Virus record (IMG/VR): IMGVR_UViG_3300025073_000042
Location: 15,952-79,951 of that record
Reading direction: 5' to 3' (one strand)
Length of the DNA stretch: 64,000 nucleotides
DNA from: a virus
Shown here: positions 2,474 to 64,000 of the stretch, piece by piece
Position numbering within the stretch: position 1 is the first letter of the stretch
Layout: each line of letters starts with the position of its first letter
Notes under the pieces: model-generated
What the model was told of the DNA's origin: nothing
The model's input: only the letters and a program-made list of their open reading frames with translations
Databases searched by the model: none
Made by a program: the position numbers and the translations under genes

Positions 2474-3187
2474 ATGGCGATGGAAGTCTGGTTCGAGGTC
2501 GCGTCCGGCGAAGTGCAGCAGCAGGCGCAGGCGCTCATCGCCGAGCACTACGCGCACGCCTACGGCGAGCAGCACGTCACAGCCGTTTTCCGGCACGCCG
2601 CCTACAGCGATAAGGGCGTCTGCCAGGACTGGCAGGCGGGAGGCGTCCGGACCCTCGGCAAGTGGGTGAAGGTCTCCGAGCAGTGGAAATGCCTAATGGT
2701 CGAGCCTGCGCCGGACATCGTGATCCTGCTCAACTACGAGGCGTGGGAAGAACTGACCTCAGCCCAGCGCACGGCGCTGCTCGATCACGAGTTGTACCAC
2801 GGCGTCCAGCGCGCCCACGACATCGGGGAGTTCGGGGAGATCCTCGAACGGCGCGGCGACTACCTGAGCCACATCGCGCTACACTTGCCGGCCGACGCTG
2901 ACCTGCCGCTGAGCGACCCGGAGACCGGCGAGCCTCTCGCGCACGACGAAGTCGCGGCGGAGCGGGCGCGTGCCGCAGAGCGCCTCGCCGCCGATCCGGC
3001 CTTCCGCCGGGCGGCCCGTGACCTCTGCCCGCAGGACGGGGACGGCATCGAGTCGGTGACGCTCAGCTCGCCGGGGCACGAGCCCGTCGTGCTGACCGGC
3101 GAGACGCGGAAGAAGCTCGATCCGATCTTCGACCGTCCAGACTTGGTGGCTGACGCCAAGCGCAAACTTGGACGGGGGGTCGCGTGA
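2474..3187 (+). CDS. Putative phage metallopeptidase
   Basis: HEXXH motif in ALLDHELYH, followed by HDIGEFGEILER.G. Confidence 0.75.
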   Translation: MAMEVWFEVASGEVQQQAQALIAEHYAHAYGEQHVTAVFRHAAYSDKGVCQDWQAGGVRTLGKWVKVSEQWKCLMVEPAPDIVILLNYEAWEELTSAQRTALLDHELYHGVQRAHDIGEFGEILERRGDYLSHIALHLPADADLPLSDPETGEPLAHDEVAAERARAAERLAADPAFRRAARDLCPQDGDGIESVTLSSPGHEPVVLTGETRKKLDPIFDRPDLVADAKRKLGRGVA

Positions 3188-3262: not shown

Positions 3263-5107
3263 GTGAAGACCGCCTTGCCGATCCCCCGCTCGCACACGCC
3301 GACCGTCGAGCTGCTGTCCAAGGCCGCGCCGAGGCGCCGGGCCTTCCCAAGCGACCAGCGCATCTCCGGCAGCCGTCAGGCGCGCGCGCCCTCTGAACTC
3401 TCGCACCTCGCGCAGACTGGCAACGCGATGGTGCAGAGCCGCTTGTTCAGGACGCGGCGCAACGATCCGGATGTGTACGGGATGCTGAGCCGGCTGCGCT
3501 CGCGGGTCCCCGAGCACCGCATCGTGGAGTCCGAGGGCTTCGAGGGAAAGGGCGACGATGCGACGCGCGAGGGGCTGCTGCGGCTGTTCCACCGGCCTGA
3601 CGGACAGCATTCGTACCGCCAGCTTCTGTCGGTGAGCGTTGACCGGCTGAAGTGCATCGGTTCGGCGCACTGGTTGCTGCGCCGGGCCGAGGAGGTGCGC
3701 GAGCAGCTTGGGCAGCGGGTGGACGTGCTGGCGAAGGACCTGTTGGCCGAGTATCCCGGCCTGCCGACCGGCGTGCTGAGCGCGCTGTGCAACAGCTTTG
3801 CGCGGGAGCTGAGCAAGCAGGTCGAGACGCGCGGCGACTCGGACGTGGTGGGCTTCGAGGTCATGTACGGGTACGTCTGCCAGCATCCCAAGGACGAGAC
3901 GAAGTACGTGCAGACCGTCGGGAGCGGGATGCGCGGCACGCAGGAGTTCGAGGCGCGCGACGTAGTGGAGTTCATCCGGCTGGACCCGGAGACAGGTCGG
4001 CCGCTGGGGGCGCTCGCGACGCTGGAGGCCTGGAGCGACGCTTCGATCTGGGCGTTCTTGCTGAATCGCGACTCCGCGCGGACCGGGGCGATGGCTGATC
4101 GCATGATCGCCATCGAGGGTTTGAGCGACGCAGAGCGTTCGCGCATCGAGGGTCTCATGCTGTACCGCGCGGACCCGACGCAGACGGACAAGGGTTTCAT
4201 CCCGATGCTCTTGTCGCTGCAGGCGTCGTTCGAGGGGCGGGCCCCGGTGATCCACGATGTCGAGCTGTCGAACAAGTCTCGTGATGCGGGTTGGATCGAG
4301 TGGGACCGAGACGTTCTCAAGAAGCGCAAGGGCGCGGTGACGGGGGTGCCCCTGCCGCTCGTGGACGAGTGGCAGACGGTGAACCGGGCGTCGCTCGACG
4401 CTTACTACCAGCTCTTGATCGACTTCGAGTGGTGGCCGCTGTTCTGCGACCTGAACGACCCGATCAACGACCGCATCCTGCAGGACGAACTCGGCGTGCA
4501 GGACTGGATACACGAGTTCGTGGAGCCCGACCTACGGAGCAGCGAGGAGCGGTTTCGGCAGGACATGGAGCAGATGGGCGCGGGGCTGCGGACGCCCTAC
4601 GCGATGATCGCCGACGAGGAGGGAGCGCCCGAAGCAGACCGGATTATCGCCGACCTCGATGCCCGTGGTCTGGACGGCGGCGTTTTGAAGCTCCCGTGGT
4701 TCAAGACCGGCAAGGGCTGGCAGCCGATCACGGAGGTCGTTGGCCGCAAGGGCGAGCCGCCGCCGACGGTCGGGGCGCAGGACCTCGCGCGACAGATGCA
4801 GGGGAAGCCGGGCCCGTCGCTCAACGATCCGAACGCCGAGCCCGACGAAGAGCAACCTCCGCCCGAACTTGAGAAGCAACTCGCGGCGCTTGACGCCTGG
4901 CAGACGGCGTGCAACGAAGCTCTGAGCAAGGGCCTTGATCCGGGCACGGCGTGGCCGGACGAGGTGAGCGTGTATGACATCGAGGAGCGCCACCTGCGTG
5001 ATGTGGATGCACGGTTGACGGGCGCAGAAACGAAGCCCGAGGTGTCGGACGCCTTCGCGCCGGCGCGGCGGGCGCTGCGCGACGGGCTGAAGGCGGTGAC
5101 GGCATGA
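3263..5107 (+). CDS. Portal protein
   Basis: 614 aa; between terminase and head-morphogenesis genes; portal-like spacing of segments (EFEARDVVEFIR, GVPLPLV, FVEPDLR). Confidence 0.75.
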   Translation: MKTALPIPRSHTPTVELLSKAAPRRRAFPSDQRISGSRQARAPSELSHLAQTGNAMVQSRLFRTRRNDPDVYGMLSRLRSRVPEHRIVESEGFEGKGDDATREGLLRLFHRPDGQHSYRQLLSVSVDRLKCIGSAHWLLRRAEEVREQLGQRVDVLAKDLLAEYPGLPTGVLSALCNSFARELSKQVETRGDSDVVGFEVMYGYVCQHPKDETKYVQTVGSGMRGTQEFEARDVVEFIRLDPETGRPLGALATLEAWSDASIWAFLLNRDSARTGAMADRMIAIEGLSDAERSRIEGLMLYRADPTQTDKGFIPMLLSLQASFEGRAPVIHDVELSNKSRDAGWIEWDRDVLKKRKGAVTGVPLPLVDEWQTVNRASLDAYYQLLIDFEWWPLFCDLNDPINDRILQDELGVQDWIHEFVEPDLRSSEERFRQDMEQMGAGLRTPYAMIADEEGAPEADRIIADLDARGLDGGVLKLPWFKTGKGWQPITEVVGRKGEPPPTVGAQDLARQMQGKPGPSLNDPNAEPDEEQPPPELEKQLAALDAWQTACNEALSKGLDPGTAWPDEVSVYDIEERHLRDVDARLTGAETKPEVSDAFAPARRALRDGLKAVTA

Positions 5108-7107: not shown

Positions 7108-7448
7108 CCCGCATCCTCGTCCCCGACACCAAGCTCGCCGAGGCCGACCTCGCGCACATCGCCGACTGGCCGGCGGACCTCATCGACATCGACGCGACGG
7201 CGACCGTCCGGCGCGCTGACGGCGAACTGCGGACGGGGGTCGTCTGGTTCTACTCGGAGGACCGCGAGTGGTGCGTGGCTTTCACCTTAGAGCAGGTGCA
7301 GGCGCATCGCCTCCACGACCGCGGCTCGCCGCTCAACTTCCGCCGCCTCGTCGAAGCCGAGATCGAATCTTCCCGCCGCTCGCACATGCAGGGCGGCGCA
7401 TGGGTGAGGCCGGGATGCAGCCCCAGGTCCACGATCCTCCAGCCGTGA
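7104..7448 (+). CDS. Hypothetical protein
   Basis: Coupled ORF with GGAGG SD. Confidence 0.6.
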   Translation: MTRILVPDTKLAEADLAHIADWPADLIDIDATATVRRADGELRTGVVWFYSEDREWCVAFTLEQVQAHRLHDRGSPLNFRRLVEAEIESSRRSHMQGGAWVRPGCSPRSTILQP

Positions 7449-7648
7449 CCGCCGAACTGCTTCCGCGCGGCGGGGACGAGGTGTGCGTCGTCTGTGGGGC
7501 CTCGGGCTGCGCGGGGCGGCCCTACGCGCGCCCCCGGGTGCTGGCGCTCACGCGCGTCGAGCGGCTGTTGGGGGGCGAGTTGCAGCGGGCGGCGGGCCGT
7601 GCGTTCGAGGCGACGTGCCCGAGGTGCGGGGCGACGAATCAGCTGTGA
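7445..7648 (+). CDS. Small zinc-ribbon protein (Com-like C-terminus)
   Basis: CVVC...CPRCGATN; GTGA overlap with upstream stop. Confidence 0.5.
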   Translation: MTAELLPRGGDEVCVVCGASGCAGRPYARPRVLALTRVERLLGGELQRAAGRAFEATCPRCGATNQL

Positions 7649-7652
7649 TGGC

Positions 7653-7681
7653 TTGACGCGATAGGGTGTTCGCAGTATGCT
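7653..7681 (+). promoter_or_regulatory. Sigma70-type promoter
   Basis: TTGACG-17 bp-TATGCT. Confidence 0.75.
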
Positions 7682-7687
7682 GACCTC

Positions 7688-7908
7688 GCTCGTCCCAGGT
7701 AATGACCTCGCGAGGGGTCAGGTGAGCAGCCGCGGTGGGGAATCCGCCCCGTCCCGGAGCGGCACCCCCGGTCCCGTTTGAGGAGCGTGTACCCGGACTC
7801 AATCCCGTGGCCACGGGGAGTTCGGGGGCGCCGGCCATAACCTGGCTAAACCCGCCCATGTCTTCACATGGGCTGAAGGCCGCTCCGCGAGGGGCGGCCT
7901 TCGCTTTG
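7688..7908 (+). ncRNA. Putative ~220-nt structured ncRNA (unassigned family)
   Basis: Between promoter and terminal hairpin; closing stem CCAGGT(A)ATG / CAT(A)ACCTGG; several internal hairpins, two with GCGA tetraloops; no SD-led ORF. Confidence 0.6.
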
Positions 7909-7912
7909 GGGG

Positions 7913-7941
7913 TTGACATCATCGACGGCTCTAGGTATACT
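7913..7941 (+). promoter_or_regulatory. Near-consensus sigma70 promoter driving the GGY-NN array and RAMP-like gene
   Basis: TTGACA (7913-7918)-17 bp-TATACT (7936-7941). Confidence 0.85.
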
Positions 7942-8060
7942 GAAAGCACTTCGAGAGCTGTGCGGGTTTTGCGTTTTCGGACAACCTCTTCGGCCCCGGC
8001 AGCCCGCGCAGCTCTCGAAGGCAGCGCAAGCAGTCGGGGCCGATTTGTGTTTCAATGAGA

Positions 8061-8420
8061 GGCGAGGCGTGGTACGGTACGGCGGGCTCGGGTTTGGTTG
8101 GGCGGGGCAAGGCAGGGCGAGGGTCGTTTGCTATCATCCGCTTCCATTGGCGTGGTGTGGCCGGGTGATGTGTGTTTTGGTGGGTCCTGGCGGGGTGAGG
8201 TTGGGCGAGGCGAGGCGAGGGCTGTAACCGCCATTCTACCTCTTCACGAGGTGAGGCGCGGTCCGGCTTGGTCCGGCTTGGTAAGGTAGGGTAGGGGTCG
8301 TTCGCCATCATCCATCTTCTCACGGTGAGGCAAGGTCAGGTGCGGCAAGGTCAGGTGAGGTGCGGTCTGGTCTGGTGCGGCAAGGTTTGGTCCGGCGAGG
8401 CGAGGCAGGGCGAGGGTCGT
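8061..8420 (+). repeat. Four-unit array of phased GGY-NN pentamer tracts (putative guide-RNA array, VIPR-like)
   Basis: Tracts 8061-8120 (12 pentamers), 8149-8218 (14), 8250-8294 (9) and 8324-8413 (18). Each ends in GGGTCGT or GGGCTGT; tracts are separated by 21-24 nt C/T-rich linkers. Confidence 0.9.
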
Positions 8421-8449
8421 ACCAATCACATCCCAAGGAGGGAGCAGAC

Positions 8450-9007
8450 ATGCAGACGTTCAGGGCAAGGATCGAGGGACTGTCGCCGCTGTTGATGCAC
8501 CGCTTCAGCGAGGAAGCGGAGAAGGCCGTTGAGGAGCAGATCAAGACGAAGAAGGCCGATCACGGGACACCGGAGGAGGAGGCCGAACGCGCCGCATATC
8601 GGATCGACGGCCTGAACAGCGAGCTGTACCTGCCGGGCGAGGCGGTCTACCAGTCGCTCGTGAAGGCTGGTGTCGGCTTCGCCGTCCCTGGCGCGCGGGG
8701 GAAGACCTACAAGGATTCTGTGAAGGGCATGGTCGTCATCCAGCCGGAGTGCATTCCGCTCGGCACTGATGAGTACGTCCTCGACTCGCGCCGGGTACGC
8801 ATCCAGCGCGGAACGTGCATGAGGAAGCGCCCTCGCCTCGATCAGTGGGCGGCGGAGTTCGAGGTTATGATCTTGGACGAGGAGGCGTTGCCACCTGCGA
8901 CGCTACTCGCCATCCTGCAGCGCGCCGGTCAGATGGTCGGGGTGCTCGACTATCGTCCGCGCTTCGGGCGCTTCCAGGTGACGCTGTGGGAGCAGGTCGC
9001 GTCGTAG
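8450..9007 (+). CDS. Solo Cas7/RAMP-like RRM-fold protein (Vipr-like)
   Basis: 185 aa with SD AAGGAGG. IEGLSPLLMH (beta1 + His), LYLPGEAVYQSL (PG...L helix) and C-terminal G-rich loop AGQMVGVLDYRPRFGRFQV are RAMP/Cas7 hallmarks. Confidence 0.8.
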   Translation: MQTFRARIEGLSPLLMHRFSEEAEKAVEEQIKTKKADHGTPEEEAERAAYRIDGLNSELYLPGEAVYQSLVKAGVGFAVPGARGKTYKDSVKGMVVIQPECIPLGTDEYVLDSRRVRIQRGTCMRKRPRLDQWAAEFEVMILDEEALPPATLLAILQRAGQMVGVLDYRPRFGRFQVTLWEQVAS

Positions 9008-9042
9008 GTGTTCGATGGTTGCGGCCAAAGCACGGTCGGACG

Positions 9043-9067
9043 AGACCCGCATTCGTGCGGGTCTTTC
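9043..9067 (+). terminator. Intrinsic terminator closing the array/RAMP cassette
   Basis: AGACCCGCA-TTCG-TGCGGGTCT followed by a short T run. Confidence 0.65.
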
Positions 9068-9294
9068 GTCGTCTGGCCCTTGACAAGCCTCGCCCGCCTG
9101 TGCTAAGAGAAGACCGTCGCACCACAACAGAAGCTCGACGGTCCATCGTGTGTCGTGCCTGAAACGTTGCCCTCAGCGGGGGCAGCGTCTCGTCGGAGGC
9201 CCCGGAGGATCGCCGCGTCAAGCGCGTAGGGCTCAACCCCCTGCGCCTCGACGTTCGGCGACCCCGGGGCCGCCGTCATTTCAGGAGGCACGCA

Positions 9295-9917: not shown

Positions 9918-11912
9918 ATGCCCTGGGCGAGCTACGCAGAAGCGAAGCAGGCGGCACCGGGCTTGGTCTCGGTGCGCCCGAATGCACAGAGCAAACCGCA
10001 GCCCGTCAAGAACAAGGCGGCGCTCGACGCGCTGGCCGCGATGTACGACGCGGTGCAGGCGCGGGGCGGAGTGGACAATCCGGCGGCCGTCGCGAAGGCG
10101 ACGTTCGTCAAGGCCTGGCGGCACAATGGCAAGGGCGTTTGGGCGAAGCACGTCCCGCTGAGCAAGGAGGTCGCCGTGAGCGAGGTACAGGTTCCGTTCG
10201 AGAGTTACGGCCCACTCGTCAAGGCCTACGAAGAGGGCGGCAAGCGGTACGTGGTCATCTCTTGCGCGGACGACGGGCCGGACCTACAGAAGGGCGAGGT
10301 GCGCGGGCAGCGGACCATCGCCGACGTGATCGATCTGACGTTCCTCGAGAAGATGGCGCAGGAGAACGTCGCGAAGGCCGTGCCCCTCGTCGCCACGCAC
10401 GAGGACCCGTTCCAGAACGAGTGCCCGTTGGGCAAGGCGGTGGAGTCCTGGGTCGAGCCCGCCGGTTCGACGCGCTTCGGGAAGAAGCTGGCGCACAACA
10501 CCCTCCTGACGAAGTTCGAGCTGACGGACGGCGACCCCCGCACTGAGGTCCTGTGGAAACAGGGTGCGACGGGTAGCGACGCGCGAGGCACGAGCGTCCA
10601 CGGCGGCATTACGCGGATCGCCGTCGAGCTGGCGAAGAATGCGGCGGGCTACGTGCGTCGCATTCTGGACGGGCACGTCGATCACCACGCCGTCCTCGTC
10701 CCGGGGCGCGCGGCGAATCCACGCATGGGCATGGTGGCTGCCATGAGCAAGGCGCTGCAGGAGTCGGGCGCGGAGATCGCCGTGCCGGACGGGCTAGACA
10801 AGGCCGAGGTGAAGCTCTGGGGGGGCGATGAGTGCATGACTGGCTACGTCAAGACCGAAGATGATGCCTACACGGACCCCTGGCCGGTCGGCTCGAGCTT
10901 CAACGAGACGATAGCGGCCATTCGGATCAAGGTCGAGGCCCCGCGCCTGGCCGGCGTCTTCCGGGCCGTCGTGGATCGTATCATCGCGGCTGACGCGGAC
11001 GACGTGCCGAACAAGGGCGCGGCGCTGGCGAAGGCCGCCGACGAGTACCAGGCGGCGCTCGACCGGCTGATGGCGCAGGGCGACCTGAGCAAGGCGCAGG
11101 CCGACGAACTTGCGGACGAAGCGGCGGCGCTCGTCGAGACCGCCGAGCCGACGACAGAGACCGACGCACAGACCGCGACGGGCTCGCTCGTCGCAGAAGA
11201 CGGCGGCACGGCCGCCAAGGAGGCTACACCGATGGCCGAGCAGACGCTGGAGAAGGCCCTCGACCCGAAGGCGGTTGGGGCCGTGTTCGCGAAGTTCGCC
11301 CGAGCGGTCAACCCGCTGCTGAAGTTGATGGGGGGCGGCGACGAAGACGCGCTGCCCGAGGGGGACGGCGAGGCGACCGTCGAGACGGTCGAGAAGTCGC
11401 TGCAGGAGATGGACGCGGGAGCGGGCCGCTTCGCTCTGCTGTCGAAGGGCTTCATGGCGCAGATGTCGATGGACCCGGCGAGCAAGGCCAAGGCCGACGC
11501 GGAATGCCGGATGAACGAAACGGGTCAGACGCCGCACAAGGGTGCGATGGGCATGGCTCCCGGGGCGATGAGCAAGGAGCAGATCGACGAGTTCGCCGAG
11601 GCGCTCAAGGCGCAGGGCTACGTGCTTGCGAAGGCCGAGGCGCCACCGGTCGTCGCGCCGGTTGTCGCCGATCCCCCCGCCGACGAGATCGAGCGGGTGG
11701 CGAAGCTCCTGGCGAACGAGGGGCTGGTCAAGGCGGCCCTCGGCAAGCTGGATGGCGCGACTCGCGAGGCGCTGAACAAGGCGCTGGGCCCGCAGTCCGC
11801 GCAGCCGCCGGCGGATGCCGGGGCCGAGGACCCGTTCGCCGCGCTGAAGGCGTCGCCCAGGTCGGACGCGGACTTCTACGCGCAGTTCCTGCGGAGCAAG
11901 CAGCCGCAGTAG
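9918..11912 (+). CDS. Prohead protease-scaffold fusion
   Basis: H...GTSVHGG...HHAVLVPGRAANP resembles HK97/XkdF-type protease; acidic Ala-rich helical C-terminus; directly before capsid gene. Confidence 0.7.
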   Translation: MPWASYAEAKQAAPGLVSVRPNAQSKPQPVKNKAALDALAAMYDAVQARGGVDNPAAVAKATFVKAWRHNGKGVWAKHVPLSKEVAVSEVQVPFESYGPLVKAYEEGGKRYVVISCADDGPDLQKGEVRGQRTIADVIDLTFLEKMAQENVAKAVPLVATHEDPFQNECPLGKAVESWVEPAGSTRFGKKLAHNTLLTKFELTDGDPRTEVLWKQGATGSDARGTSVHGGITRIAVELAKNAAGYVRRILDGHVDHHAVLVPGRAANPRMGMVAAMSKALQESGAEIAVPDGLDKAEVKLWGGDECMTGYVKTEDDAYTDPWPVGSSFNETIAAIRIKVEAPRLAGVFRAVVDRIIAADADDVPNKGAALAKAADEYQAALDRLMAQGDLSKAQADELADEAAALVETAEPTTETDAQTATGSLVAEDGGTAAKEATPMAEQTLEKALDPKAVGAVFAKFARAVNPLLKLMGGGDEDALPEGDGEATVETVEKSLQEMDAGAGRFALLSKGFMAQMSMDPASKAKADAECRMNETGQTPHKGAMGMAPGAMSKEQIDEFAEALKAQGYVLAKAEAPPVVAPVVADPPADEIERVAKLLANEGLVKAALGKLDGATREALNKALGPQSAQPPADAGAEDPFAALKASPRSDADFYAQFLRSKQPQ

Positions 11913-12024: not shown

Positions 12025-13431
12025 GTGGACGCAGGCCTCTATGATGCACTGCTGAACAAGGCGCTGACCAGCGCCTCCGACTCGGGTGGAGCGTGGCAGG
12101 ACCACATCTTCAACCCGATCTTGACGGACGCGGCCAAGAAGAAGCGGCCGATCCTGGAGTACCTCAACATCCGCCCGGCGAACGGCAACCCGCACGTCTT
12201 CCGGCGGCGCGACTCGATGCCCTACATGCACTGGCAGGGCGCGGCTGGCACGCCGGTCGCGACGCAGAGCGGCGTCTCCGGCCCGTCGGTCAACCTGAAG
12301 GTCTGCACGGGCAGTGGCGCCGTGGAGAGCTTCCTCATCTCCACCATCGGTCCCGACAACTTCGACGTGGCTTTGGCCGAGGTCATGGGCTTCATCGAGG
12401 GGACCGCGATGCAGGTGTCGGCCTCGGTGCTGTGGGGCGACGCGGGGCTGAGTGCCACGGGCGTTGAGACCTCCGGCAACGGGAACATCTACATGCCCCC
12501 CGGCCTCGATGCGGACACCGGCATCATGCGGATCAACGGGGCCGGGGCGGCGCTCACGGATGCGCTGTTCCAGAAGCTGCTGGACACGACCAACGTTGCG
12601 GGCATGACCGGCAAGCGGTTCGCGATCATGTCCTCGATGATGGCCTCGCGCCTGGAGGCTGTCACGCAGTCGCTCGGCGCGCGGTACATGGTCGATGAGG
12701 AGGGCCTCTACGGCCGCCGGATCAAGAAGTACCGGGACTGCTACATCCTGGAGAGCGACCAGACCCGCCCGCGGGCGGTCATGGGCGCGATCTCCTGCGC
12801 GGGCAGCGACGGAAGCGGCACGCTCTCGAATGGCACGTACTACTACTACGTGGCGCCCGTCACCGCCGAGGGCGAGCAGCTTCGCCAGGCCGCTGAGGCG
12901 GACGTCACCCTCGCCGCCGGCACGGCGACGCAGAAGGTGACGATCACCATCACCGCCTTCCAGTTCTCCGACACCAACGCGTTGTATGCCGATGCCGTGT
13001 ACTACAAGATCTATCGCGGCACGGGTACTGGCGCGGAGGTGCTCGTCGCGACGGTTCCGGCGCTGTCCTACAGCTCGGGCACCGTGAGCGGCGCAGACAC
13101 GACGCTTGTGGATGACGGCACCGCTGACACGCGCGGCGGCGTGACGGGTTCGCTGCCGGGCGGTGTGTCCTCGGCCGACGACGAGCTGACTGGTACGGTG
13201 ACGGCGCCCGAGGAGTGCATCTTCCTCGTGAACGCCGATCCGGCCGACGGCATCGAGATCGCGGCCAGCGCCAACAAGTCGGCGCAGGCCATCGGCGACA
13301 ACGACCTGTTCGGCCTCGTGCGCCTGGGCAAGTCGGCGCTCAACGAGCCGTTCGCGGTGGGGTCGTTCGTCGCTCCGGTCATCAAGCGCGGCGCGTGCCA
13401 CGGTGTCCTGCGGCGCGTGCTCGCGGCGTAG
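12025..13431 (+). CDS. Major capsid protein (HK97 fold) with inserted Ig/FN3-like domain
   Basis: Position after scaffold; SD GGAGG; VLWGD..., IKKYRDCYILESD; insert GTYYYYVAPV...YKIYRGT. Confidence 0.8.
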   Translation: MDAGLYDALLNKALTSASDSGGAWQDHIFNPILTDAAKKKRPILEYLNIRPANGNPHVFRRRDSMPYMHWQGAAGTPVATQSGVSGPSVNLKVCTGSGAVESFLISTIGPDNFDVALAEVMGFIEGTAMQVSASVLWGDAGLSATGVETSGNGNIYMPPGLDADTGIMRINGAGAALTDALFQKLLDTTNVAGMTGKRFAIMSSMMASRLEAVTQSLGARYMVDEEGLYGRRIKKYRDCYILESDQTRPRAVMGAISCAGSDGSGTLSNGTYYYYVAPVTAEGEQLRQAAEADVTLAAGTATQKVTITITAFQFSDTNALYADAVYYKIYRGTGTGAEVLVATVPALSYSSGTVSGADTTLVDDGTADTRGGVTGSLPGGVSSADDELTGTVTAPEECIFLVNADPADGIEIAASANKSAQAIGDNDLFGLVRLGKSALNEPFAVGSFVAPVIKRGACHGVLRRVLAA

Positions 13432-13468: not shown

Positions 13469-13503
13469 GGCCCGGAGCCGAGATGTCGGTCTCGGCTCCG
13501 GGC
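13469..13503 (+). terminator. Strong hairpin after the capsid gene
   Basis: GCCCGGAGCCGAGA / TCTCGGCTCCGGGC inverted repeat; no clear U-tract. Confidence 0.45.
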
Positions 13504-17372: not shown

Positions 17373-17384
17373 GTCTCCTGACGA

Positions 17385-17404
17385 CCTGCCTGCCGGCAGG
17401 CAGG
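17385..17404. repeat. 20-bp palindrome CCTGCCTGCCGGCAGGCAGG (copy 1)
   Basis: Perfect palindrome; identical copy at 50448-50467. Confidence 0.9.
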
Positions 17405-17437
17405 CGGGCGGCGCACACAGAGAGGAGCATCGACATC

Positions 17438-17737
17438 ATGGCTGAGAACAACGGACGCGGCAAGCGTTGGAGCACGAACGACGCAGGCCGCGTCGTCTTT
17501 CTTCTGGACGAGGGCTTTCTGCCCCTCGAATGGGAGATCACGGGGAAGGGGCGGGGGCTGCGGGCGACGGCGGTTTACGAGAACACGTCGGAGCTGCAGG
17601 CGGCGCTCGACCGCTACTTCGACACCGACAACTGCTGCCGAGTGTTCGTGGAACGCTATCGCAAGACGCTGTACCAGATGCAGAATGCGGCCGACACGGG
17701 CGACGCGCGCTGCATCGACCTTCAGCCGACGCGCTGA
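17438..17737 (+). CDS. Hypothetical protein
   Basis: SD AGAGAGGAG. Confidence 0.55.
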   Translation: MAENNGRGKRWSTNDAGRVVFLLDEGFLPLEWEITGKGRGLRATAVYENTSELQAALDRYFDTDNCCRVFVERYRKTLYQMQNAADTGDARCIDLQPTR

Positions 17738-31949: not shown

Positions 31950-32003
31950 GACGCCTTGACGCTATGACGCTACAGCGTTATGCTGTCAGGAAGGCAAAAC
32001 GCC

Positions 32004-44204: not shown

Positions 44205-44311
44205 CGCATCCCACGGCCCTCCGCCGCCGCGAGGGCCGCCTTACCCACAAACTCGCCGGAAGGCCGCCGGGGCGCGCGAGGGGCGGCCTACTGAACGGAG
44301 GAACGGAACCG

Positions 44312-44620: not shown

Positions 44621-44967
44621 AGCGAGTCCTGTTGCCGTTCGTGCTGTTCGCCCTGGCCGCGGCGGCCGTCGCCGACGGGGCGATTGAGGTGTCCGTCGTT
44701 CAGTCCACGTTCGTCGGTAGGCCATTCGTCGGGACGGTCGGGAGCATCCGGCTCTGTACGCTGGAGGCCCCGAACCCGTTCGGCGAGCTTGCCTGCTACG
44801 CGGACGGTGGCGTGCGTCTCAGCGAGACGACTGAGAACAGCATTGCGGGTTTCCTCGTCGGCGCATCGGTAGGCCAACGCGGGAGTGCACTAAGGTTCGG
44901 AGCGGGGTACATTTACCCAGACTCCAGCCTGACGGTATACACAAGGGCAGTTCTCATGCGGTGGTGA
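44617..44967 (+). CDS. Secreted beta-strand-rich protein in the lysis cassette
   Basis: Signal peptide MKRVLLPFVLFALAAAAVA; amphipathic strands; ends in W. Confidence 0.55.
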   Translation: MKRVLLPFVLFALAAAAVADGAIEVSVVQSTFVGRPFVGTVGSIRLCTLEAPNPFGELACYADGGVRLSETTENSIAGFLVGASVGQRGSALRFGAGYIYPDSSLTVYTRAVLMRW

Positions 44968-44970
44968 TTG

Positions 44971-44999
44971 TTGACTTCGCGGTCTCGACATGGTACTAT
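44971..44999 (+). promoter_or_regulatory. Sigma70-type promoter
   Basis: TTGACT-17 bp-TACTAT. Confidence 0.7.
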
Positions 45000-45205
45000 G
45001 TAAAGGCCTGCGGAGGCTACCACAACTGACCTAAGATCACCTCGCCCGACTTCGACCCGCCTCCGCAGGCACGGTCGGAGTCGGGCGTTGTGTTTCCGGC
45101 GAGGGTGGGGCGGGATCGAGACCTGCCAGTTCTGGCGTTGGCCCGCCAGACCGCCTTAGGACATAGGGGAGGCTCACCCTCGGCCAGCCGGATGGGAGGA
45201 ATTGG

Positions 45206-45883
45206 ATGACGGGACAATCTGGGGCAGGGATGGTAGCTTGCGCCTGCGGCTGCGGGAAGATGCGATCAGCATTCGATAAGAAGGGAAGACCACGCGCCTA
45301 CATCAAAGGGCATGGACAGCAGGAGCATTACCCGCTGGCATCGGAGGAACTCCCGGACTTACCAAACGAAGTCTGGAAATCCTGCCGTGACTTTCCGCGA
45401 TATGAGGTTTCTTCGCTTGGCCGCGTTCGGCGCCGGCCCCCTGTCAGGTCTTCGCATGGTCCTGTCATCATGGACTCGCACCCAGACCCATGCGGATACC
45501 CTCTGGTGAATATCTACGCGGACGGCACCGCTGCAAACAAGAAGGTACATCAGCTTGTCGCCGCTGCGTTCATCGGGAAGGTCCCCGAGGGATTGGAATG
45601 CCACCACCTCAACGGGGTAAAAACCGACAACCGCGCGCGGAACCTAGGGTACATATCCCACGCAGCCAACGTCGCTCACGCATTCCAGACCGGACTCGCC
45701 GACGGTGAGCATTGTCGCGGCAGTAAGCAACACCTGTCGAAGTTGACGGAAAGCGAAGTACTCCGTATCCGTGAACTGCTATCAAACGGAAAGCGCGTCT
45801 ACGAGGTAGCCGAACTGTTCGGAGTGAATTGGAGTACCATCGACCGCATTCTAAAGCGGGAGACGTGGGGATGGCTTGACTAG
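45206..45883 (+). CDS. NUMOD4-HNH homing endonuclease with C-terminal HTH
   Basis: EVWK....YEVSSLGRVR; VHQLVA.AF; HLNG.KTDN...NL....H..N; KLTE.EV..IR. Confidence 0.9.
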   Translation: MTGQSGAGMVACACGCGKMRSAFDKKGRPRAYIKGHGQQEHYPLASEELPDLPNEVWKSCRDFPRYEVSSLGRVRRRPPVRSSHGPVIMDSHPDPCGYPLVNIYADGTAANKKVHQLVAAAFIGKVPEGLECHHLNGVKTDNRARNLGYISHAANVAHAFQTGLADGEHCRGSKQHLSKLTESEVLRIRELLSNGKRVYEVAELFGVNWSTIDRILKRETWGWLD

Positions 45884-46063
45884 AGCAACCCGCCCGCGCA
45901 ATGGCGCGGGCTGGAGGCCGGTGCGCAACGGCCTCCGCTTCTACCACGGGGCAGTGGGTGCCCGACCCTCAACGCGCGCCTCCGGGAGGCTTCCGGAGGC
46001 GCGCTGCGATTCTGGATTGGCGGTACGGGGACGGCAGGGGACTCTATAGCCGAAAAATACTTC

Positions 46064-47072: not shown

Positions 47073-47109
47073 AGACGCGCCTCCAGTGCGGGGCGCGTCA
47101 TTGTTTTTG
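47073..47109 (+). terminator. Intrinsic terminator
   Basis: GACGCGCCTC..GGGGCGCGTC followed by ATTGTTTTT. Confidence 0.7.
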
Positions 47110-63499: not shown

Positions 63500-63730
63500 A
63501 TGAGCAGGCTTTCGTACTTTGATGATTACCCCCCACACGGCCAGTGGTTCCGCCTGTCAACCGAGGGGAGCGGGGACCAAGAGCGAGTGCTTGTCGAGTG
63601 TCTCGCGCTGCCGAGTCCGGTATTCGACGGGTACATGTCCTGCATGGCATTCCTGAGCGACGTAACCTGCGAGGAGTGCCCTGTCGGGCGATTGGCCGAG
63701 AGGGCGGATACAGAGCCCCCGAGCCGATAG
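63500..63730 (+). CDS. Hypothetical protein
   Basis: SD AGGAGG. Confidence 0.5.
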   Translation: MSRLSYFDDYPPHGQWFRLSTEGSGDQERVLVECLALPSPVFDGYMSCMAFLSDVTCEECPVGRLAERADTEPPSR

Positions 63731-63758
63731 CCGCGATCCTGCGACGGGAGGGGAAGGC

Positions 63759-64000
63759 ATGAACCAGGACCGAGAACCTACTTGGCAGGACCGGCTTCGC
63801 GACTCGCTGCTCGAATGGGCGGACGGGGCATTCAACGATGAGGGGACCTTCAACTTCGCACTCGGCTCCCGAGAGACAGAGGACTGTCCGGTTCGGTACT
63901 ACGGCTTCTGCGCGTTGCAGGAAGGGCCGACCCAGACGGACTGCGAGACGTGCGAGATGAGCGACTGTTTCAAGGGTGGAGGGCCTCCACTCGAAAGCGG
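63759..64000 (+). CDS. Hypothetical protein (3'-truncated by window edge)
   Basis: ATG after GGAGGGG; frame open to window end. Confidence 0.45.
   Translation, partial: MNQDREPTWQDRLRDSLLEWADGAFNDEGTFNFALGSRETEDCPVRYYGFCALQEGPTQTDCETCEMSDCFKGGGPPLES

Follow-up and report, generated by a model that had tools for sequence, protein, structure and literature searches.

The element at positions 7653 to 7908 of the window, by which we mean the whole 64,000-nucleotide (nt) stretch of phage DNA that was analyzed, is most likely an orphan unit of promoter, leader and hairpins that stands before a known VIPR cassette and serves as a conditional terminator. An earlier note on this DNA had presented it as a stand-alone, highly structured noncoding RNA (ncRNA) of about 220 nt; the features listed there are real, and that headline overstated them. 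The explanation that we favor, with a confidence that stops somewhat short of even, is a cis-acting leader or attenuator that possibly also yields a short terminated RNA.

The window corresponds to bases 15952 to 79951 of a 79,951-bp IMG/VR virus record of about 96% completeness. The phage is lytic and has a GC content of about 67%, with all of its credible genes on the + strand. Searches for related phages with the proteins that neighbor the element gave the capsid protein as the best case, at about 26 to 27.7% identity; among isolated phages, this protein comes closest to those of Leptospira phages (27.7% identity), and none of 401 sampled Chloroflexota genomes held a related prophage. By these comparisons, the phage is very isolated and would belong to a deeply divergent lineage. 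The sole clue to its host is the phage TnpB (34606 to 35883), whose best genome match, at 62% identity, is in Chloroflexales bacterium ZM16-3 and points weakly to Chloroflexota.

Most proteins neighboring the element have no Pfam or PHROG match, and Pfam gave no terminase or portal match across the genome. Pfam, PHROGs and PDB sequence searches were blank for the products of 3263 to 5107 and 9918 to 11912. Language-model look-alikes indicated that the former is portal-like (score of 0.95, with portal families as 10 of the 10 best matches) and that the latter is prohead protease or scaffold-like (DUF2213, S78, Mu-like); the major head protein is encoded at 12025 to 13431. The element therefore lies within the head-gene region, downstream of the portal-like gene, rather than at a boundary between early and late genes. 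The gene immediately upstream (7415 to 7648, + strand) encodes a 77-amino-acid (aa) orphan protein with a zinc-ribbon-like CxxC...CxxC pattern. It shows a third-position GC signal in frame, the database gene call is also 77 aa, and the protein has no Pfam, PHROG or PDB match. This protein and the Vipr-like protein of the cassette each have one relative, 86% identical, on short ENA contigs, and identical copies of both proteins neighboring the element occur on 13 further contigs. The stop codon of the 77-aa gene lies 5 nt upstream of the −35 hexamer of the element's promoter.

This promoter, P1 (7653 to 7681, + strand), had been claimed as TTGACG-17-TATGCT, and our promoter scan called it with a score of 9/12, with the −35 hexamer at 7653, the −10 hexamer at 7676 and a 17-nt spacer; transcription from it would start at about 7688. 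A second promoter, P2 (7913 to 7941, + strand; TTGACA-17-TATACT, 11/12), belongs to the VIPR cassette and bounds the element from outside. In the 3.5-kb stretch in which P1 and P2 were called, the chance expectation from shuffled sequences was 0.4 ± 0.6 promoter sites. Across the window, 16 sigma70-like sites with a good −35 hexamer lie on the + strand versus 2 on the − strand, and this asymmetry makes it unlikely that P1 is a chance site. The spacer is 17 nt in nearly all of these sigma70-like sites, most of which lie in gaps upstream of ribosome-binding sites, and the promoter at 31956 has hexamers identical to both of those of P1. The + strand set includes sites at 1612, 3203, 7653, 7913, 25502, 31956, 34679, 41473, 44971, 46064, 47121, 52713 and 60468. 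With near-consensus hexamers, a spacer within 16 to 18 nt, a noncoding position and placement on the coding strand, P1 is a credible candidate for a sigma70-type promoter. The window-wide scan found no good promoter between 7941 and 25502, and the downstream structural genes therefore depend on transcription that crosses the element region and two further hairpins. The 17-kb head-tail block can be reached only by read-through of the hairpins at 9042 and 13470.

The folding signal of the element lies in a tandem hairpin at its 3' end. A perfect 8-bp hairpin with a CUUC loop (7854 to 7873, + strand; ensemble probability of 0.97) is followed by T1, a terminator-like 12-bp GC-rich hairpin with a GCGA loop (7875 to 7902, + strand; 0.98) and then GCUUUGGGGG. 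The 58 nt from 7851 to 7908 that contain these two perfect hairpins fold with a z-score of −6.7, and the stability excess of the element sits here; the tandem hairpin far exceeds any other local structure in stability. Like an intrinsic terminator, T1 has a GC-rich hairpin; it lacks the U-rich tract, with only 3 U in its tail, and was not called by our terminator scan, whose rule was at least 5 T in 8. The U tract is also missing from most other intergenic hairpins of this phage, so the efficiency of its hairpins as terminators, T1 included, is uncertain, and T1 may terminate poorly. The arrangement of a GC hairpin followed by a promoter recurs in the phage, at 45974 before 46064 and at 47074 before 47121, and further strong GC intergenic hairpins lie at 13470 (after the capsid gene), 54628 and 9042. 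An intergenic hairpin at 44259 to 44290, between two genes, has about 25 nt (GAAGGCCGC...CGCGAGGGGCGGCCT) in common with the hairpin at 7875 to 7902, a likeness that suggests a reused terminator-like module.

Taken whole, the element has folding z-scores of −4.0 (+ strand) and −3.5 (− strand), and the 220-nt window from 7701 ranks 1 of 290 by z-score and 2 of 290 by minimum free energy (MFE) among such windows across the phage. The description of the entire RNA as highly structured did not hold for the noncoding leader body (7688 to 7850, + strand). This 163-nt core has a z-score of −1.14, close to the −1.08 of its − strand, 25 of 200 shuffles fold as well, and the stability excess is confined to the 3' hairpins. 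Every motif that had been named is present where it was placed, including the hairpins at 7703 to 7720, 7854 to 7873 and 7875 to 7902 and the GCGA loops. The nested model built from these motifs has an energy of −78.4 kcal/mol versus −118.9 kcal/mol for the MFE and thus costs 40 kcal/mol. Its long-range stem, between 7695 to 7704 and 7836 to 7845, is complementary at 9 of 10 positions (CCAGGTAATG at 7695 and CATAACCTGG at 7836), but the stem has an ensemble probability of at most 0.04. Among the inner helices, the hairpin at 7703 to 7720, with its GCGA loop, is robust (0.79), whereas the GCCGC, CCCCCG and TTGAG helices again have probabilities of at most 0.04 each. A further robust hairpin of the body lies at 7792 to 7826 (0.97), and the remaining fold is ambiguous. 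The multi-helix junction is what a sequence of 70% GC yields by chance, and the real signal is the tandem 3' hairpin. In DNA of 67 to 70% GC, long nested helices found by eye are to be expected by chance, and two ordinary terminal hairpins gave the impression of a highly structured RNA here. G·U pairs in three hairpins and the two GNRA (GCGA) loops favor the + strand as the RNA strand.

The tandem hairpin has a competitor within the leader. A candidate antiterminator segment at 7734 to 7795 (+ strand) is complementary to 7850 to 7906, with a core pairing between 7756 to 7763 and 7879 to 7886. The duplex of these two segments has an energy of −67.0 kcal/mol versus −44.9 ± 4.9 kcal/mol for dinucleotide shuffles, none of 300 of which reached −67.0, and only 1 of 302 natural 62-mers of the phage was as complementary to 7850 to 7906. 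This test is partly post hoc, since the segment was noticed after folding. With no segment chosen, the whole 160 nt upstream gave a z-score of −4.0 against the hairpin pair. Overall, the complementarity of upstream sequence to the pair has z-scores of −4.0 to −4.5, and nine control hairpins of the phage gave −1.7 to +1.5 in the same test and showed no comparable competitor. In stepwise folding, an RNA that ends at 7890 pairs 7756 to 7763 with 7879 to 7886 at a probability of 0.96, and this pairing sequesters the 5' arm of T1, the last hairpin. The full-length fold forced into the antiterminator has an energy of −117.0 kcal/mol versus −118.9 kcal/mol for the terminator fold, which is the MFE, a gap of 1.9 kcal/mol. 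These predicted, near-isoenergetic terminator and antiterminator folds are a new, computational observation. The feature by which an attenuator is recognized, an upstream segment that sequesters the 5' arm of the terminator beyond chance, is thus present by energy computation only. The complementary segment resembles an inverted, degenerate copy of the hairpin, and it is possible that it is a duplication relic.

We found no coding signal in the element. Over the roughly 800 bases from 7650 to 8449, third-position GC is about 0.6 to 0.7 in all frames versus 0.85 to 0.93 in genes, and this flat profile argues that there is no open reading frame (ORF) there, as the earlier note had held in denying a credible ORF led by a Shine-Dalgarno sequence. 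A small ORF or leader peptide was rejected, with no Shine-Dalgarno sequence at the proper spacing and no third-position GC signal, and so was a − strand gene at 7548 to 7949, in which codon-position GC is flat. We searched the whole window with the Rfam 15 covariance models, which include 6S, SRP, RNase P, tmRNA, pRNA, ribozymes and riboswitches, and no family reached its gathering threshold. The best match in E-value mode over 7500 to 8400 was P26, at 20.9 bits against a gathering score of 36 (E of 0.096), and this subthreshold match covers only the two 3' hairpins. ARAGORN found no tRNA or tmRNA. The statement that the element is not a tRNA, tmRNA, SRP, RNase P or 6S RNA is supported by these searches, and its description as an unclassified, promoter-led, noncoding unit on the + strand was borne out. 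The suggested ribozyme or packaging role was not, since ribozyme and pRNA families gave no match even when E values up to 10 were allowed. We also rejected a cos or pac site, as no terminase was recognized and the locus has no packaging-site indications, and an attP site, as the genome yielded no integrase or resolvase.

The element has no detectable relatives. A blastn search found no homolog in phage and plasmid collections, four exact or gapped DNA patterns found none in IMG/VR, and blastn and nhmmer gave no match in 83 fetched loci. A single-sequence covariance model found no homolog in the same loci (379 kb) or in 151 Chloroflexota genomes; its only match (E = 0.077 per genome) is noise. 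Across the 79.9-kb phage genome, there is no complementarity of at least 15 nt to the element beyond chance. As judged by these searches, the element is a single orphan sequence.

The neighbor on the 3' side is a VIPR cassette (7913 to 9075), whose P2 begins 10 nt past T1. The cassette protein (8450 to 9007) has 185 aa and belongs to phrog_4652, and its confident structure model (pLDDT of 90.8) shows a Cas7/RAMP fold, with type VII Cas7, Csm3 and Csf2, each a backbone subunit of the Cas7 type, as its best Foldseek matches (probability of 1.00, TM of 0.5 to 0.6). GGY/NN pentamer tracts precede this gene at 8061 to 8125, 8179 to 8223, 8250 to 8299 and 8324 to 8418. VIPR systems pair the RAMP protein Vipr with vrRNAs, made of GGY/NN repeats, that skip one base in recognizing DNA; vipr, vap and the vrRNAs are the only components published, and hammerhead ribozymes are reported in some VIPR arrays (bioRxiv 10.64898/2026.04.26.720920). 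The cassette is such a known system. It lay partly behind the earlier reading of the element, and its family was already described in 2026 (bioRxiv 10.64898/2026.04.26.720920). The cassette has no obvious vap gene; the 77-aa zinc-ribbon protein is a candidate.

In 70 of 81 other loci, the Vipr-like homolog has same-strand, GG-phased arrays of 5-nt units beside it, either on one side (upstream or downstream) or on both, and the third repeat position is a pyrimidine in 92% of 2,481 units from 65 loci of 40 to 70% GC. None of the fetched loci shares neighboring genes with this phage. On L002, a distant viral contig with a Vipr-like protein of 35% identity, a small ribbon-helix-helix-like ORF (2860 to 3000) precedes the homolog and five pentamer arrays follow it; this ORF may encode a vap-type DNA-binding partner. 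When the phage's own vrRNAs were compared with its genome, the element included, under the published 1-nt-skip rule, their best matches equaled those of shuffled controls, and a self-target was accordingly rejected. A tracr-like partner of the vrRNAs was rejected as well, with a pairing energy of −208 kcal/mol versus −210 ± 8 kcal/mol for shuffles. The element itself has no GGY/NN pentamer periodicity.

How the parts might work together can be stated as a model, in which we infer that P1 fires, that the hairpins terminate and that the alternative pairing is used. A noncoding leader would start near 7688 from P1 (7653 to 7681), and the tandem hairpin (7854 to 7873 and 7875 to 7902) would stop most transcripts, whether begun at P1 or arriving from the portal-side genes, short of P2 and the VIPR cassette. 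By pairing with both hairpins, the leader segment at about 7741 to 7790 would occupy the 5' arm of the terminator. Where this antiterminator persisted, transcription would read through; where it was displaced, a discrete RNA of about 215 nt would result. We favor a cis-acting leader because the hairpin pair alone has an upstream competitor of nearly equal energy, because the structural genes need read-through in a region where no good promoter lies between 7941 and 25502, and because a promoter that runs into a terminator without a gene follows the logic of lambdoid late leaders, in which a short RNA is released (PMC7547250). Against it stand the body at 7688 to 7850, which is no more structured than chance (z of −1.14), and the mere 3 U of T1. 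With so strong a promoter as P2 lying 10 nt past T1, moreover, regulated read-through from P1 would add little to expression of the cassette. No antiterminator family (Q, Antiterm or ANTAR) was found in the genome, and the lambdoid Q families PF06530 and PF03589 are absent from all 79.9 kb of it; a nonhomologous Q analogue is possible. No sensor was recognizable in the element, and no known aptamer matched in Rfam.

A bolder form of this model has the element as a new cis-acting RNA switch, either an antiterminator that senses a factor or a put-like RNA by which polymerase gains resistance to terminators. Such a switch would gate whether transcription from the portal-side genes and P1 passes three hairpins and enters the VIPR cassette and the 17-kb structural operon. 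We regard this form as improbable. If the conditional switch as such is real, in this form or the plainer one, it would reveal how the structural genes are timed in a lytic phage that uses host-type promoters and has many internal hairpins, and how the VIPR cassette, an inter-phage weapon, is kept insulated from their transcription. Unless expression or comparative data demonstrate use of the switch, the element is of modest significance.

Among known systems, the lambdoid PR'-tR' leader (the lambda "6S" RNA; StxS) is similar in having a sigma70-type promoter, a terminator about 200 nt downstream and no gene between them, in preceding structural or late genes that need read-through, and in giving a short ncRNA as a by-product. 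It differs in that this phage has no detected Q-family protein, carries the element inside the head module after a portal-like gene rather than at the early/late boundary, and has a second strong promoter after the terminator; RNA antiterminator pairing is predicted here, whereas the Q mechanism uses none. The mutually exclusive folds of near-equal energy and the upstream segment that sequesters the 5' arm of the terminator recall attenuators and the expression platforms of riboswitches. Unlike those, the element has no recognizable aptamer, leader peptide, T-box, protein-binding repeat or Rfam match, its body is unstructured beyond chance, and the unit downstream has its own promoter. The HK022 put RNAs, which act in cis in processive antitermination, are about 70 nt long with two defined stem-loops and have no terminator directly after them. 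Like them, the element is a hairpin RNA close to its promoter and ahead of an operon that contains internal terminators, but it is followed at once by a terminator-like hairpin. As a self-contained promoter-to-hairpin unit between head genes, the element also resembles moron-type insertions, and it lies beside a true moron, the VIPR cassette; unlike promoter-gene-terminator units of that type, it has no protein gene. Like the vrRNAs of VIPR systems, it would be a phage noncoding transcript from intergenic DNA that flanks a vipr gene, but it has no GGY/NN pentamer tract or conserved tail and is not found beside other Vipr-like homologs.

The favored cis-acting leader has to be weighed against simpler and more elaborate explanations. 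Plain punctuation, in which the tandem hairpin insulates the VIPR cassette, the spacer holds a weak or incidental promoter-like site and GC-rich DNA folds by default, strikes us as rather unlikely, while agreeing with several of the results: the core folds at chance level on both strands (−1.14 and −1.08), P1 scores only 9/12, the T1-like hairpin motif appears again at intergenic positions 44259 to 44290, hairpin-then-promoter pairs are common in the phage, and none of the 81 other loci fetched via homologs of the cassette protein contains the element. This explanation does not account for about 190 noncoding nt between promoter and hairpin in a compact phage, and both the strand asymmetry of promoter sites (16 versus 2), which speaks against a chance site, and the complementarity of upstream sequence to the hairpin pair, which none of the other hairpins among the 10 tested shows, run counter to it. 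That P1 and T1 bound a stand-alone RNA gene of about 215 nt acting in trans on transcripts or proteins of the host or of a competitor phage is, in our estimate, unlikely. The element's own promoter and strong 3' hairpin with no ORF between them are what such a gene would have, the G·U pairs and GNRA loops fit transcription of the + strand, and terminated phage leaders such as StxS are known as small RNAs (PMC7547250). The absence of complementarity of at least 15 nt beyond chance in the phage genome, the pairing with the vrRNA region that is no better than shuffles, the chance-level folding of the body and the lack of homologs in the collections, loci and genomes searched all argue against a trans-acting function.

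The remaining explanation, proposed in the earlier note, makes the element an accessory RNA of the VIPR system. It could then be a ribozyme for processing, a partner of the tracr type or the leader of an array. Its position directly upstream of the cassette and the hammerhead ribozymes of some VIPR arrays (bioRxiv 10.64898/2026.04.26.720920) would suit this role, which our results largely exclude and to which we give very little credence. The proposed check, co-occurrence with the RAMP-like gene, came out negative, as blastn, nhmmer and the covariance model found no match to the element in the 81 other homolog loci. In the 54 loci tested, moreover, a median of 8 nt separates the stop of the preceding ORF from the first array, too little space for such an element. 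Ribozyme families gave no match at E up to 10, vrRNA pairing was not in excess and GGY/NN periodicity was lacking, the cassette has its own promoter past T1, and the published components comprise no such RNA (bioRxiv 10.64898/2026.04.26.720920).

Other strongly folding 220-nt windows in this phage lie at 44881 to 45100 (z of −5.4), 17381 to 17600 (−5.3), 63581 to 63800 (−4.8) and 45761 to 45980 (−4.25). The first of these, which follows closely on the promoter at 44971, is part of the roughly 200-nt leader that precedes the gene at 45206.
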